In this document: piece after piece, positions 14,554 to 48,511 of the stretch
How positions within the stretch are numbered: the first letter of the stretch is position 1
Layout of the letters: the number at the start of each line of letters is the position of its first letter
DNA from: Candidatus Borkfalkia avicola
GTDB taxonomy: Bacteria; Bacillota; Clostridia; Christensenellales; Borkfalkiaceae
Reading direction: 5' to 3'
NCBI GenBank assembly: GCA_019116115.1
Contig: DXCF01000005.1
Location: 15,495-79,494, forward strand
DNA: 64,000 nt
The notes under the pieces: model-generated
Database searches by the model: none
What the model was told of the DNA's origin: nothing
Seen by the model: only the letters and a program-made list of their open reading frames with translations
Position numbers and translations under genes: made by a program

Positions 14554-14582
14554 ATTATAAATCTGAATTTTGCCGTTTTCAA
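14554..14582 (-). promoter_or_regulatory. Sigma-A promoter of the aldolase-like gene
   Basis: Minus strand TTGAAA, 17 nt, TATAAT. Confidence 0.75.
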
Positions 14583-14634
14583 TGCCTTCTGCCATAAACT
14601 TTTTCGGCAGACAAACTTGACTTTTATAAGTATC

Positions 14635-14850
14635 TGCGCGTTTCAAAGCCACGCCTTTGAATAAGCGCACTCAATTTGCCGTAAACTTACGGCTCCCCCG
14701 AAGGGGGTGAATTTGCGGCATTTTTCAATATGTGTGCCCCGAAGATGCCGCAAAGAGGGGGAAACTGCCCGCAGAGCGCAGCGAACGGGCGGTTGCACCC
14801 TGAAATTCGCAGGATTTCGCAGCCGTCAGCTCGGCGAGAAATCCGCGAGC
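14635..14850 (-). repeat. Structured intergenic repeat, single ~215-nt unit (copy A)
   Basis: Reverse complement is near-identical to 35245-35459 from GCAACC inward, differing mainly in one loop and in the outer hairpin. Confidence 0.9.
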
Positions 14851-14854
14851 TTTT

Positions 14855-15454
14855 TCAGTGCCTTTTCTCCAGCTCCGTGCAGACGTCGGACAGCTTTACG
14901 CCCGCGTTCGCCAGCAGCACGAGGGTGTGGTAGAAGAGGTCTGCGCATTCGCCGACGATCTCTTCCTTCTCCCCGTTTTTGGCGGCGATGACCAGCTCGA
15001 CCGCCTCTTCGCCCGCCTTTTTGGCGATCTTGTCTACGCCCTTTTCAAAGAGATAGCAGGTATAGCTGCCTTCTTCGGGGTTTTGTTTGCGGTCTTCAAC
15101 GATGCGCTGCAGCCTGCCCAGCATCTCCGCGCCCGCGCCGCATTCCTTTACGGGCGTGAAAAAACAGCTGTAACTGCCCGTGTGGCAGGCGGCGCCCGTC
15201 TGTTCGACTTTGAGAAGGACGCAGTCTTTATCGCAGTCGAGATAAATGCCGCGCACCTTTTGCAGGTGCCCGCTCTCCTCCCCCTTTTTCCACAATTTTT
15301 TGCGCGAGCGGCTCCAATAGTGGGCATACCCCGTTTCGAGGGTGAGGCGGTACGCCTCTTCGTTCATGTATGCCTGCATGAGCACTTCTCCGCTCTCGAA
15401 GTCCTGCGCGACGGCGCAGACGAGGCCCTGTTCGTTCCATTTGAGTTCTTCCAT
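14855..15454 (-). CDS. hisIE: Bifunctional phosphoribosyl-AMP cyclohydrolase / phosphoribosyl-ATP pyrophosphatase
   Basis: [34 protein letters not shown]...KKAGEEAVE. Confidence 0.96.
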
Positions 15455-34342: not shown

Positions 34343-35218
34343 TTATTCTATGTTCTGCACCTGTTCGCGGATCTTTTCGATCTCGTTTTTGAGGGCAAGA
34401 CCGCTGTTGGTCACAGAAAGGTCGTTGCTCTTGGAACAGACGGTGTTCGCCTCGCGGTTGAATTCCTGCACGAGGAAGTCGAGCTTCCTGCCCACGCGCT
34501 CCTCCGCGCAGATGGCGCGGAACTGCGAGATGTGCGATTTCAGACGGGTGAGTTCTTCGTCTATGTTGGATTTGTCGACGAATACGGCGACTTCTGTCAG
34601 CAGGCGCGATTCGTCGTAATCGACGCCGGAGAGCGCCTCTTTCATGCGCTCGGAAAGCCTCGCGCGGTAATTCTGCGCGACGAGCGGCGCGCGCTCCGAA
34701 ATGTCTGCGACCAGCTTTTCCACCGTGTCCATGCGGGAGAGCATATCGGCGGCGAGCTTTTTCCCCTCCTCCGCGCGCATCCCGTTGAGCTTTTCAAGCG
34801 CGGCGGAGAGCGCCGCGTTCAGAGCGGAAAAGAGTTCGTCGTCCGCCGCCTGCGCCTCTTCGGGACGGGCGACGTCTGTACACTTCAGAAGGGCGGTGAG
34901 GGTGAAATCGTCGGGAATGGCGGGGAACACCGCTTTGAGCTTCTGCGCCGCGCCGTACCAGCTGCGCGCAGCCTCTTCGTCGACGTACAGCGTTTTGGCG
35001 CGCTCGCGCCTGTCGGTGAGGTTGACGTACACGTCGGCATGGCCGCGCGTCATGCTCCCGCGCACTTTGGCGCGGATCGCCTCTTCGCAGGCGGTGAAGA
35101 TGCGCGGCGCTTTGACGGACACGTCGAGGTAGCGGTTGTTGACCGTTTTGATCTCGACGGTCAGTTCGATGCCGCCCTCTTTGTATTCCCCTTTTCCGTA
35201 ACCGGTCATACTGAACAT
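34343..35218 (-). CDS. yicC: YicC/YloC family endoribonuclease
   Basis: SMTGYG, EIKTVNNRYLD, GRKLDFLVQEFNREANT..SK, EKIREQVQNIE. Confidence 0.94.
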   Translation of the reverse strand: MFSMTGYGKGEYKEGGIELTVEIKTVNNRYLDVSVKAPRIFTACEEAIRAKVRGSMTRGHADVYVNLTDRRERAKTLYVDEEAARSWYGAAQKLKAVFPAIPDDFTLTALLKCTDVARPEEAQAADDELFSALNAALSAALEKLNGMRAEEGKKLAADMLSRMDTVEKLVADISERAPLVAQNYRARLSERMKEALSGVDYDESRLLTEVAVFVDKSNIDEELTRLKSHISQFRAICAEERVGRKLDFLVQEFNREANTVCSKSNDLSVTNSGLALKNEIEKIREQVQNIE

Positions 35219-35244
35219 AAAAGACCTCGCTCGCGGATTTCTCG

Positions 35245-35689
35245 GCTCGGAGATTTTGTTTCAAGCTGATGAAACAAAATCTTCCGATTTGAAGGGGCAA
35301 CCGCCCGTTCGCTGCGCTCTGCGGGCAGTTTCCCCCTCTTTGCGGCATCTTTTGGTGCACACATTTCGATAAATGCCGCAAATTCACCCCTTTCGGGGGA
35401 GCCGTAAGTTTACGGCAAATTGAGTGCGCTTATTCAAAGGCGTGGCTTTGAAACGCGCAATAATTATAATAAATAAATGCGCAAGCAAAATCGCAATTTT
35501 GCGCCAGCGCACACGATTTGCTGTGAAGCTCTTGCAGGAAAGGTGAATGCGGCGCGCGTATTTTATGGTGTGCCCCAAAAAGGCGCGCCGCAGAGGAAAA
35601 CCTCCGCTGTCCCGACCGACGGGAGGGCGGTGGGGTTGTCCTCAATTCGGAAGATTTTGTTTTGTCAGCTCAAAACAAAATCTCCGAGC
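35245..35689. repeat. Structured intergenic repeat, inverted doublet (copy B): units 35245-35459 and 35478-35689 around an AT-rich spacer
   Basis: Imperfect inverted termini of about 55 bp (GCTCGGAGATTTTGTTT...GCAACC versus GGTTGTCC...AAACAAAATCTCCGAGC); homologous to 47402-47847 and 14635-14850. Confidence 0.9.
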
Positions 35690-35726
35690 GGAAATTATTA
35701 TAGCAGAAACCGCGAAAAATTTCAAG

Positions 35727-37757
<2,031 letters not shown>

Positions 37758-42774: not shown

Positions 42775-42934
42775 TCCTCTCAACCCTCCTTCGCCTGACG
42801 CACTTAATCAACGCTGTCTATTTTATACGAAAGAGAGGAGAAAGTCAAGCTATTTTCCGCCCGCTGCGGAAAAATTTTCCGCACTGCGGACGCTCCTGCC
42901 GGGCGGTTTTGCCGACCTGCCCTATCAGAAGCGG

Positions 42935-46036: not shown

Positions 46037-47395
46037 ATGCAACGAAAAATACGCCTCACTCCGGTGCGGCTGCTGGTACTCGGCTATCTCGCCGTCATCA
46101 TCATCGGGACGCTGCTGCTGATCATCCCGTTCGCTTCTAAAATAACGGGCAGCGCCTCCTTTATGGACGCGCTGTTCACGACCGTTTCCGCTTCCTGCGT
46201 GACGGGGCTGATCGTGCGCGATACCTATACGCATTGGTCGACCTTCGGACAGGTCGTCATCCTGCTGCTCATTCAGATCGGCGGCATCGGGTTCATGACG
46301 GTGGTCTACCTGCTCCTGCGGCTGGGCGGCAGAAAGATCGGGCTGAAAGAGCGCACGTTCATGCAGGAGGCGGTCAGCGCCCCCACTTTGAGCGGCATGG
46401 GAAAGCTGACGACGACCATCCTCGTCGGCACCCTCGCCTGCGAGGGCATCGGCGCCTTTATCCTCTGCTTCCGCTTCGTGCCCGACTTCGGCTGGGGGGA
46501 AGGCATCTGGATCTCCGTCTTTACCGCCGTTTCCGCCTTCTGCAACGCGGGCTTCGACCTCTGCGGCGGGAAATACGGGGAGTTCTCTTCCCTGACCGCC
46601 TATTCGGGCGACCCCATCGTCTGCATCACCATCCCCCTGCTCATCATCGTCGGCGGGCTGGGTTTTTTCGTCTGGCAGGACATCAAGAACAATAAGTTCC
46701 ATGTACGCAAATACGAGCTGCACACAAAGCTCGTGCTCATCATGACGGCGGTGCTCGTCGTCGTGCCCACCGCGATCATCGCCATCGCGGAGAACACGCT
46801 CCCCTGGGGCGAGCGCATCCTCTCCTCCCTCTTTACGGCGGTGACGCCGCGCACGGCGGGATTCAACGTGCTGCCCCTTTCGGGCGCGGGGAGCGTGCGG
46901 TCGGTGACCATCTTCCTGACCATCGTGCTCATGTTCATCGGCGGCTCGTCCGGCTCGACCGCGGGCGGCATCAAGACGAACACCCTCGCCGTGCTCTTCC
47001 TCTCCGTGTTTTCGCTGATACGCGGCAAACGCTCGGTAGAGTGCTTCGGCAGGCGGCTCGACGACACCAACGTGAAAAACGCCGCGCAGTTCGTTACGGC
47101 GTTCCTTTCCCTCATCGTGCTCGGCACCGTGCTGCTGTGCCTGTTCGAGGAGAACAACGCCGCCTTTGCGGAGGCGCCGCTCACCCCCACGCAGGCGGTG
47201 TTCGAGGTCGTTTCCGCGATAGCGACGGTCGGCCTGACGACGGGCATCACGCCGCAGCTGACGATTGGGTCGCAGATCGTACTGTGCGTGCTCATGTTTT
47301 TAGGACGCGCGGGCTGCATGACGGTCATGCTCGCCTGGAAGGCGCCCAACGCCCCGACGGCGGAACTGCCGCTGGAGAGGGTGAGGATAGGGTAA
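46037..47395 (+). CDS. ktrB: KtrB/TrkH K+ uptake membrane subunit
   Basis: SASCVTGL, IQIGGIGFM, FCNAGFD, TPRTAGFN, GSTAGGIK, ATVGLTTG pore motifs. Confidence 0.93.
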   Translation: MQRKIRLTPVRLLVLGYLAVIIIGTLLLIIPFASKITGSASFMDALFTTVSASCVTGLIVRDTYTHWSTFGQVVILLLIQIGGIGFMTVVYLLLRLGGRKIGLKERTFMQEAVSAPTLSGMGKLTTTILVGTLACEGIGAFILCFRFVPDFGWGEGIWISVFTAVSAFCNAGFDLCGGKYGEFSSLTAYSGDPIVCITIPLLIIVGGLGFFVWQDIKNNKFHVRKYELHTKLVLIMTAVLVVVPTAIIAIAENTLPWGERILSSLFTAVTPRTAGFNVLPLSGAGSVRSVTIFLTIVLMFIGGSSGSTAGGIKTNTLAVLFLSVFSLIRGKRSVECFGRRLDDTNVKNAAQFVTAFLSLIVLGTVLLCLFEENNAAFAEAPLTPTQAVFEVVSAIATVGLTTGITPQLTIGSQIVLCVLMFLGRAGCMTVMLAWKAPNAPTAELPLERVRIG

Positions 47396-47401
47396 AAAGG
47401 G

Positions 47402-47847
47402 GCTCGTTGCATTTGTTTCGAGCTGGCGAAACAAATGCATCCGATTTGAAGGGGCAACCGCCCGTTCGCTGCGCTTCGGCGGGCAGTTTCCCCCTCGCGC
47501 GGCATAAGTGGGCACACATATTATTTGAATGCCGCGCTTCACCCCCTTCGGGGGAGCCGTAAGTTTACGGCAAATTGGGTGCGCTTTGCCAAAAGTGTCA
47601 TTTTGGCACGCGCAGTAATTTTTATAAATACTCGCGCAAGCAGAACCACGCTTCTGCGATAGCGCACCCCTGTTTGCGCGGAAGCGCTCTTGCAGGAAAG
47701 GTGAATGCGGCGCGCGTAGTTTAAGGTGTGCCCTAAAAAGGCGCGCCGCAGAGGAAAACCTCCGCTGTCCCGACCGACGGGAGGGCGGTGGGGTTGTCCT
47801 CAATTCGGAAGAATTTGTTTTGTCAGCTCAAAACAAATTCTCCGAGC
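47402..47847. repeat. Structured intergenic repeat, inverted doublet (copy C): units 47402-47614 and 47633-47847
   Basis: Collinear with 35245-35689, with compensatory stem changes; starts 7 nt after the ktrB stop and ends 20 nt before the ktrA start. Confidence 0.9.
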
Positions 47848-47866: not shown

Positions 47867-48511
47867 ATGAAATCAGTTCTCATCATCGGGCTGGGCAGGT
47901 TCGGTACCTATATGGCGAAAAAATTTGCCGAGCTCGGGAATCATGTGATGGCGGTGGATACCGACGAGGAGAAGGTCAACGAGATCCTGCCTTACGTTAC
48001 CAGCGCGCAGATCGGCGACGCCTCGAAGCCTTCCGTGCTCGCGGGGCTGGGCATCGACAACTATGACATCTGCGTCGTTTCGATGGGCGAAAACTTTCAG
48101 GGGTCGCTGGAAACGACTTCCCTGCTCAAAGAGGCGGGCGCGAAGTTCGTGCTCTCGCGCGCCTCGACGGAGATACAGGCAAAATTTTTGCTGCGCAACG
48201 GCGCCGACGACGTCGTGTTCGCGGAAAAAGAGATGGCGGAACGCCTCGCCGTGAAGTACAGCGCGAACAATATCTTCGATTATATCCAGCTCACGCCCGA
48301 ATATGCCATTTACGAGATCCCCACGCCGAAAACGTGGGAGGGAAAGACCATCCGCGACAAGGGCGTGCGCGTGAAATACAACCTGAATATCCTCGCCATC
48401 AAGCGCGGGGCGACGCTCATCCCCCTGCCCTCCCCCGATTACGCCTTCAACGCGGCGGAGCGGCTGATCGTGATGTGCCGCAAGGCGGACATCGACCGCA
48501 TCATGCATTGA
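47867..48511 (+). CDS. ktrA: KtrA/TrkA K+ uptake regulatory (RCK) subunit
   Basis: Start reassigned to MKSVLIIGLGRFG after GGAGG; TrkA-N Rossmann fold and TrkA-C domain. Confidence 0.93.
   Translation: MKSVLIIGLGRFGTYMAKKFAELGNHVMAVDTDEEKVNEILPYVTSAQIGDASKPSVLAGLGIDNYDICVVSMGENFQGSLETTSLLKEAGAKFVLSRASTEIQAKFLLRNGADDVVFAEKEMAERLAVKYSANNIFDYIQLTPEYAIYEIPTPKTWEGKTIRDKGVRVKYNLNILAIKRGATLIPLPSPDYAFNAAERLIVMCRKADIDRIMH

Follow-up and report, generated by a model that had tools for sequence, protein, structure and literature searches.

An undescribed intergenic repeat family of Candidatus Borkfalkia with a strand-specific six-helix fold and outward-facing terminal hairpins

Five units at three intergenic loci

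The window, by which we mean the whole 64-kb stretch of DNA analysed here, is part of a Candidatus Borkfalkia metagenome-assembled genome (MAG) of 1.84 Mb in 43 contigs that is 90% complete. It contains five copies of a ~215-nt unit, one as a singlet and the others as two inverted doublets of ~445 bp, each built around an AT-rich spacer of 18 nt; a covariance model of the family recovers exactly five in the window, at the positions given for them in a first-pass annotation made from the sequence alone. All three loci are intergenic. The singlet has hisIE on one side and a gene for an HMGL-like aldolase on the other, doublet 1 is flanked by ligA and a YicC-like gene, and doublet 2 by the TrkH-family gene ktrB and the TrkA-family gene ktrA. 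The features are listed below, with the evidence for each in parentheses where it applies.

14635–14850, plus strand (the folding strand, H1 to H6, ending CGAGC): singlet unit S (R1 match, 189 bits; sequence; open reading frames)
35229–35244, minus strand: 16-nt relic, identical to the reverse complement of 14835–14850
35245–35459, minus strand: unit A1, left half of doublet 1 (R1 match, 209 bits; open reading frames)
35460–35477, no strand assigned: AT-rich 18-nt spacer of doublet 1; each strand has a TATAAT-like box
35478–35689, plus strand: unit B1, right half of doublet 1 (R1 match, 89 bits; inverted repeat I4)
35697–35725, minus strand: native promoter of the yicC-like gene (TTGAAA-17-TATAAT with TG)
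47402–47614, minus strand: unit A2, left half of doublet 2 (R1 match, 260 bits)
47615–47632, no strand assigned: AT-rich 18-nt spacer of doublet 2 (sequence)
47633–47847, plus strand: unit B2, right half of doublet 2 (R1 match, 86 bits)

Each unit has at one end a terminal hairpin, P1 (also helix H6, and the outer hairpin of the first-pass annotation), which is a 13–14-bp inverted repeat with an AGCT core and GCTCG/CGAGC feet. The hairpin of S comes to within 4 nt of the hisIE stop codon at 14855. In doublet 1 the P1 of A1 (35245–35290) faces the yicC-like start codon at 35218 and that of B1 (~35644–35689) faces outward at the opposite end; in doublet 2, A2 begins 6 nt past the ktrB stop codon at 47395, and the 19 nt between the end of B2 and the ktrA start codon at 47867 include a GGAGG. 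The short relic immediately outside the A1 end is what is left of an older P1 of the S type, whose final 16 nt it represents (CGAGAAATCCGCGAGC on the folding strand).

A repeat finder links 35245–35689 and 47402–47847 end to end and pairs 14625–14850, the singlet, with both left halves as inverted matches. The ends of doublet 1 form inverted repeat I4, 51 nt long and 88% complementary. Identity between the two doublets is 85% overall, with values of 89% for B1 and B2, 82% for A1 and A2, and 60–66% between A and B halves, and in a five-unit alignment the right halves, taken in reverse complement, align as diverged homologues of the left halves. The two halves of a doublet are thus diverged homologues of one another, and each half is conserved between doublets.

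The yicC-like promoter (35725–35697) is the only strong sigma-70 match near doublet 1 and fires straight into B1; it is kept in species and strains that have no doublet. A sigma-70 promoter internal to the repeats was considered and rejected, a consensus scan giving no canonical promoter inside either doublet and, in the interior of doublet 2, a single weak match (9/12). The two halves of a doublet look symmetric in their promoter-like boxes.

A six-helix fold on one strand

The units, ~175–225 nt in length across the family, have six helices (H1–H6) on one strand only. Read along that strand the order is an AT-rich TATAAT-like box, H1, H2, H3, the junction GGUGAA, H4, H5, H6 and a 3' CGAGC. 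The H4 loop reads AUAUGUGUGCCC on the folding strand and the H6 loop UCAGCUC. Conserved motifs comprise GGUGAA and, within the H4, H5 and H6 loops respectively, GUGUGCCC, GCGAACG and UCAGCUC. Units that are 60% identical in sequence still have the six helices in this order, and so do members from other families of the order.

The covariance model was built from three closely similar units and an RNAalifold structure, and was used to align 44 matches from this genome and other species. In the resulting structural alignment 93.2% of pair cells are standard pairs, and both-sided changes occur in 64 of the 66 pairs. The covariation score is 0.537 against 0.163 in shuffles, a value reached by none of 500 shuffles, and with the partner slid by 1–3 columns it is 0.09–0.13. 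An alignment fitted to the model favours structure, and the margin is large all the same; compensatory changes are already visible in the two best-aligned helices of a plain MAFFT alignment, which was not used by itself because it misplaced H4 and H5. The fold is kept by compensatory substitutions. A pairwise column scan, dominated by lineage correlations, gave no consecutive antiparallel signal for a pseudoknot between the H4 loop (GUGUGC) and either the 3' flank of H1 or the H6 loop.

Wobble pairs identify the folding strand as the complement of the GCTCG-first orientation. Predicted folds contain 20 1x1 A.C mismatches on the GCTCG-first strand and one on its complement, and in the structural alignment G.U cells outnumber A.C cells by 86 to 26 overall and by 42 to 4 in helix 5. 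The excess on one strand is strong in H5 and H3, and in H1, H4 and H6 the two counts are about equal. The minimum free energy is likewise equal or lower on the reverse strand, relative to GCTCG-first, for 16 of 17 units, and for every one of the 17 once the flank is trimmed. Some of the G.U excess and of the covariation reflects shared ancestry within subfamilies, and these cell counts therefore overstate the number of independent events. Conservation of unpaired columns is no lower than that of paired ones (0.74 versus 0.68). Covarying stems together with conserved loops are the usual mark of a selected single-stranded fold, and the strand specificity and the conserved loops imply that a single-stranded form of the folding strand, whether a transcript or single-stranded DNA, would be recognised or useful.

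Several statements of the first-pass annotation can be judged against this fold. The stems and loops that it quoted are present, the covariation that it noticed in them is strong, and its description of doublet halves as mutually diverged yet conserved from doublet to doublet agrees with the identities given above. Its GCTCG-first orientation has to be reversed, the folding strand being the reverse complement. Its rule that every unit starts with GCTCG and carries an AGCTG(A/G) loop does not extend to the whole family, as other subfamilies in the genome begin with TTCACG and have an AAGAGA loop instead of GCTCG/AGCTGA.

Palindromic DNA might acquire covariation without a selected fold, through intrastrand template switching that copies one arm onto the other. 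Most stems are perfect Watson–Crick helices without a strand signal, as the near-equal G.U and A.C counts of H1, H4 and H6 illustrate, and the mosaic and hybrid hairpins described below suggest that conversion is frequent. Neutral copying of this kind nonetheless seems very improbable to us, given that loops and junctions are conserved across species and families, that the wobble excess of H5 and H3 lies on one strand, and that the helix order persists both at 60% identity and in other families.

A second reading takes the units as stand-alone genes for a structured small RNA of ~215 nt, which would be transcribed from the TATAAT-like box and end at H6; their rearrangement and changes in copy number would be secondary, as in sibling sRNA genes. 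Besides the six covarying helices, the conserved loops and junctions and the strand-specific wobble pairs, it draws on the TATAAT-like box itself, which lies at a near-fixed distance (5–9 nt) upstream of H1 in most units of several species, and on the T run that follows the 3' CGAGC in about a third of copies. Beside the box, however, there is no -35 element or TG extension, and the doublets contain no promoter beyond the weak match in doublet 2; nor is there a consistent terminator, and in 11 of 34 copies a ribosome-binding site and start codon come directly after H6. Truncated, tandem, mosaic and interrupted copies are numerous, sister species have anywhere from 0 to 65 copies, and the strict P1-outward pairing and the collapse to a solo hairpin (both described below) are properties of a DNA element. 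We regard small-RNA genes as a possible but rather doubtful explanation.

Distribution, arrangement and turnover

Five units is the number in the window and not the size of the family. An nhmmer profile of the five gives 29 matches in this genome, 17 of them full length, and the covariance model gives 25, comprising 18 full and ~7 partial copies. Several copies are at contig ends, which indicates that the repeats break Borkfalkia MAG contigs, a practical concern for assembly. Five sister genomes contain 63, 65, 52, 41 and 0 covariance-model copies, the genome with none being well assembled, and units occupy up to ~0.8% of a genome. Of 24 species in the genus, 18 have the family by BLAST, which gives no match in any of 16 other families from the order. 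The covariance model, applied to 200 further genomes of the order, has matches in three (one from another genus of the same family and two from other families); these share the helix order and the conserved loop motifs of the Borkfalkia units and are therefore real, diverged members. The distribution is patchy. All genomes compared are MAGs, 73–96% complete. The genus is known from MAGs of the chicken and human gut, where it is a common lineage, and the units in its operon spacers and 5' leaders may alter gene expression.

The arrangement of the units follows a simple rule. Among 168 units listed for five genomes, adjacent pairs (600 nt or less apart) comprise 25 inverted pairs with P1 outward, none with P1 inward, and 19 tandem pairs, and the spacer of inverted pairs is 17–22 nt in 14 of the 25. 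In half of the units of this genome P1 lies 1–7 nt from the end of a coding sequence, in nearly all cases a stop codon, as judged with crude gene calls. Solo P1 hairpins were not found outside units in this genome as an abundant, REP-like base element.

The content of orthologous spacers differs between species. The ligA-yicC spacer is empty in 13 of 20 species, where it is 95–190 nt long and retains the native promoter, and in the seven that are filled the number and arrangement of units differ. The ktrB-ktrA spacer is empty (33–130 nt) in ~18 species and filled in 10, with a doublet, a single unit or a tandem pair. At all filled loci the P1/H6 end is a few bases from a stop codon or just upstream of a ribosome-binding site, and the other end of the unit points into the interior of the spacer. 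The flanks of three doublets and of singlets show no duplicated bases that would constitute a target-site duplication.

Varied alleles also segregate within the species, as seen in strains represented by contigs from other samples, which were retrieved by exact-protein look-ups and whose flanking genes are 98.2–100% identical in DNA to those of the window. The ktrB-ktrA spacer varies from 471 to 708 nt among strains, and its halves are in the order A-B, as in the window, in three strains and B-A in three. At ligA-yicC the order found in the window is shared by one strain and reversed in two, and one strain has an extra 60-nt deletion. Alleles of opposite order also differ in sequence and so are not products of a single recent flip. 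In strain L096 the ligA-yicC spacer is 91 nt long and its sole content is a 46-nt hairpin, GCTCGGAGATTTTGTTTCG-AGCTGA-CGAAACAAAAGCAACGAGC, a hybrid with the left arm of one P1 type and the right arm of another. Unit bodies move between loci: in strain L092 the A body of the ligA-yicC spacer shares 96% identity with the ktrB-ktrA copy of this genome and just 82% with this genome's ligA-yicC copy. Insertions of ~110–120 nt are present in strains L083, L084 and L094; modules of this size sit in the H1 and H4 regions and are also present in four copies of this genome, and a module of ~70 nt lies within a P1 loop directly 3' of AGCTGA. The 16-nt relic of 35229–35244 recurs unchanged in L083 at ktrB-ktrA, behind a different unit. 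The singlet locus has the same length in all strains compared.

The element turns over quickly, by inversion, exchange, insertion and deletion, and the natural alleles of one species display inversion, inter-locus exchange, module insertion and collapse to a hybrid hairpin. The first-pass annotation had treated the inverted doublet as a defined unit, which the census of 25 outward and no inward pairs bears out, had seen no target-site duplication, in agreement with the flanks, and had named orthologous loci at which mobility could be checked; at two of them, ligA-yicC and ktrB-ktrA, the presence and the orientation of units are polymorphic, both between species and within one. Its view that the family is undescribed also stands: the window gives no Rfam match at gathering score and nothing relevant at E<=10 (the best sub-threshold match is to a hairpin-only miRNA model, at 23 bits with a cut-off of 63), the phage and plasmid collections searched contain no match to the units, and a literature search found no paper on Borkfalkia repeats. 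The family is thus undescribed, lineage-restricted and multicopy, has a strand-specific six-helix fold, and always places P1 outward in its inverted pairs.

The location and polymorphism of the doublets could also be those of a domesticated cis-acting cassette or switch, in which P1 would serve as a terminator or 3' stabiliser for the adjoining gene, the AT-rich centre would supply outward promoters and inversion would be a programmed, phase-variable event, as in an inverton. P1 is found 1–7 nt past stop codons and is followed by AUUU(U), one doublet separates ktrB from ktrA and another occupies the 5' leader of the yicC-like gene, and both orders segregate in the species at two loci. A dedicated switch is still unlikely in our view. 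Most species have no unit at the orthologous sites and the genes retain their own promoter, the U-tracts are short, the symmetry of the halves in promoter-like boxes means that a flip would change little, and more than a flip separates alleles of opposite order.

The terminal hairpin P1 and comparison with known elements

Taken together, we favour the reading that the units are a non-coding, fast-rearranging intergenic repeat family of Candidatus Borkfalkia with a few members elsewhere in the Christensenellales, to which we assign a probability of about 0.55. Within it P1 behaves differently from the rest of the unit. A1 and S are 95% identical in the body and 60% in P1, while A1 and B1 show the reverse, with 88% in P1 and 59% in the body; within a doublet, one P1 is 80–88% identical to the other. 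P1 is therefore a separately exchanged module, and similarity is maintained between the ends of a doublet whose halves come from different subfamilies. We infer that P1 is the site where the DNA recombines, which makes one short palindrome the likely site of action and a directly testable one.

The palindromic nature of P1 means that the two copies in a doublet are at once inverted and direct repeats, and exchange between them could have several products. The interior would be flipped, or it would be deleted to leave a hybrid solo hairpin such as that of L096, or units would be released, re-inserted at another P1 and so swapped among loci. None of these outcomes would leave a target-site duplication, and P1 exchange fits the missing duplication, the matched ends and the mosaicism. 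The agent could be a dedicated recombinase or nuclease, or host recombination together with replication slippage at palindromes. The relic junction (35244/35245) falls inside a P1 arm, at a CTCG microhomology away from the AGCT core. Clean core exchange does not account for all events, and this junction fits slippage better than clean site-specific exchange. The P1 arms vary between subfamilies yet stay self-complementary, which is awkward for a recombinase that binds a specific DNA sequence. P1 exchange would not account for the colonisation of P1-free sites.

Genes for candidate partner enzymes were sought in four families, Y1, TnpB, IS110 and reverse transcriptase. Neither a Y1 HUH transposase (PF01797) nor a TnpB zinc-ribbon (PF07282) has a match in this genome, and a reverse transcriptase (PF00078) and an IS110 DEDD recombinase (PF01548) are likewise absent from it. 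Ten unit-rich and seven unit-free genomes contain Y1 genes in 6 and 4 cases, TnpB over the cut-off in none of either, and reverse transcriptase and IS110 in one of each. All four families were rejected as partners, being either absent or uncorrelated with the units. The lack of reverse transcriptase in this genome and in nine of the ten unit-rich ones also fails to support retro-mobilisation of the retron, group II intron or SINE-like kind. Among the matches listed no gene is enclosed by a unit pair, the MAGs being incomplete, and an autonomous copy on small contigs was considered and rejected, the smallest contigs of these incomplete MAGs carrying ordinary genes. A partner gene could be absent from the data because the MAGs are 73–96% complete and their contigs are broken by the repeats.

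In many respects the family resembles the REP/BIME and REPIN-RAYT elements of enterobacteria and pseudomonads. These too are non-coding and strictly intergenic, with hairpins often a few bases past a stop codon, and they form inverted doublets with a short spacer and mosaic arrays, without target-site duplication and in lineage-specific copy number. A REP, however, is one hairpin of 20–40 nt, whereas the Borkfalkia unit has ~215 nt, six helices and conserved loops, and only its terminal hairpin is REP-sized; REPs number in the hundreds and Borkfalkia copies in the tens; and REPINs are defined by REP-flanked RAYT genes, to which the Borkfalkia units have no link.

This last difference bears on the mechanism put forward in the first-pass annotation, that the units are REPIN-like and mobilised in trans by a Y1 HUH enzyme (a RAYT or an IS200/IS605 TnpA) reading P1 as single-stranded DNA. 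It would account for the inverted doublets with their short spacer and lack of target-site duplication, for hairpin ends with a conserved 5' foot GCTCG and for strand-specific folding, and Y1 genes are present in 27 of 49 genomes of the genus. Yet this genome is without PF01797, Y1 genes are found in unit-rich and unit-free genomes alike and are missing from genome G001 with its 65 units, and the unit is 5–10 times the length of a REP. No unit lies within 1.5 kb of the four best Y1 loci, whose flanks contain instead unrelated short hairpins of the AAACC(N)CGCG type, typical of IS200-like ends. With Y1/RAYT, TnpB, IS110 and reverse transcriptase genes failing to co-occur with the units, HUH mobilisation is unsupported, and we think it quite improbable.

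A single structured end module is also known from the IS200/IS605 PATE elements with their omega-RNA and from the IS110 bridge RNA, which are similar in having a ~200-nt RNA-like structure and no target-site duplication. The 17 genomes have no TnpB over the cut-off and the units match no omega-RNA or IS605-orfB motif of Rfam, IS110 is present in just one of the 10 unit-rich genomes, and the ends of the Borkfalkia element are symmetric, without the distinct left and right ends of these insertion sequences. Invertons and XerC/D pdif modules offer another parallel, in that a segment lies between inverted arm-spacer-arm sites, occurs in both orientations within a species and leaves hybrid sites. 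In the Borkfalkia family, by contrast, the arms vary while remaining self-complementary, which suggests a hairpin more than a site bound by protein as a duplex, one junction is off-core, and no recombinase was identified among the enzyme families screened.

A bolder version would make the unit a mobile structured-RNA gene that aids its own movement, with a recombinase or host enzyme, guided or scaffolded by the six-helix RNA or its single-stranded DNA counterpart, recombining the P1 sites and the doublets acting as programmed invertible and excisable cassettes. We hold this to be improbable. If RNA-guided recombination at P1 were true, the family would represent a hitherto undescribed kind of site-specific mobile element, associated with RNA and lacking a transposase.

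Returning to the intergenic repeat family that we favour, its behaviour is closest to REP/BIME-REPIN elements, pneumococcal BOX elements and miniature elements with long inverted ends (MITEs). BOX elements of Streptococcus pneumoniae (boxA-boxB-boxC) are also intergenic in a Firmicute, consist of exchangeable modules with stable predicted folds, vary between strains and have no known cognate transposase. They differ in lacking any sequence or structure similarity to the Borkfalkia units and in having no obligate P1-outward inverted doublets, and we know of no description of covariation over six helices for BOX. MITEs such as Correia/NEMIS, RUP and ERIC are comparable to the ~445-bp doublet with its 51-nt terminal inverted repeats (88%), its presence/absence polymorphism and its likely co-transcription with neighbouring genes. 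The Borkfalkia units, in contrast, are without target-site duplication, no related autonomous IS was found in these incomplete MAGs, single and tandem units are as common as doublets, and the ends are themselves palindromes. The family thus lacks features that define these classes, namely a RAYT link, a single short palindrome and a target-site duplication, and no parent IS is seen among the matches listed. REP, BOX and ERIC are old puzzles, the function and spread of most of them remaining unclear, and the Borkfalkia family is informative beside them for its large RNA-like fold, apparently selected on one strand.

Rearranged, interrupted and reduced units

The units are intergenic repeats of ~215 nt that fold into six helices.

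C41:64400-64640 and C36:10166-10300 (contigs of the same genome): tandem triplication of a doublet centre, with a period of ~88 nt
C22:3550-3670, C32:260-380, C28:1-100 and C35:1-100, and loci L083 and L094 of same-species strains: extra ~120-nt module, GGGCTCCCGAAAAAGATTTGCGCAAGCAAAG...GACGACGAGCG
C33:4732-6860: gene of ~1.7 kb between two units, the P1 ends (terminal hairpins) of both facing the gene

At the triplicated sites only the doublet centre is repeated, comprising half of one H1 helix, the AT-rich spacer and the other H1. The ~120-nt module, which has hairpins of its own, interrupts at least four units within their H4 loop and is also inserted in some strains; the starts of contigs C28 and C35 both lie within it. 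In a read-through mRNA spanning the bracketed gene on C33, the untranslated regions at the 5' and 3' ends, ~200 nt long, would be complementary to each other. At locus L096, from the same species in another sample, the sole content of the ligA-yicC spacer is a hybrid hairpin, 46 nt long, whose feet are GCTCG/CGAGC; solo hairpins of that sort were not found in the genome to which the window belongs.

Y1 transposase genes in the genus

IS200-like genes for Y1, the HUH transposase screened as a possible partner enzyme, are present in 27 of the 49 Borkfalkia genomes, at 1-7 per genome. Those at loci L053-L056 in sister genomes have short flanking hairpins that follow the pattern AAACCNCGCG-loop-CGCGNGGTT; the genes lack a TnpB partner and are unrelated to the units.

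Promoter sequences near the units

Window 14560-14625 and C41:30580-30657: repeated module of ~70 nt adjoining some units
Window 35697-35746: conserved promoter region of the yicC-like gene, directly past the ligA stop, TTGAAA-17-TATAAT with TG

The ~70-nt module contains an outward-facing TTGAAA-17-TATAAT promoter, directed in the window at the aldolase gene, and also a CTGCC...GGCAG hairpin followed by TTGAC; its second occurrence, on contig C41, lies upstream of another unit. Window 42819-42869 is a 73% look-alike of the yicC-like promoter region (repeat family D19) and may represent another promoter built in the same way.
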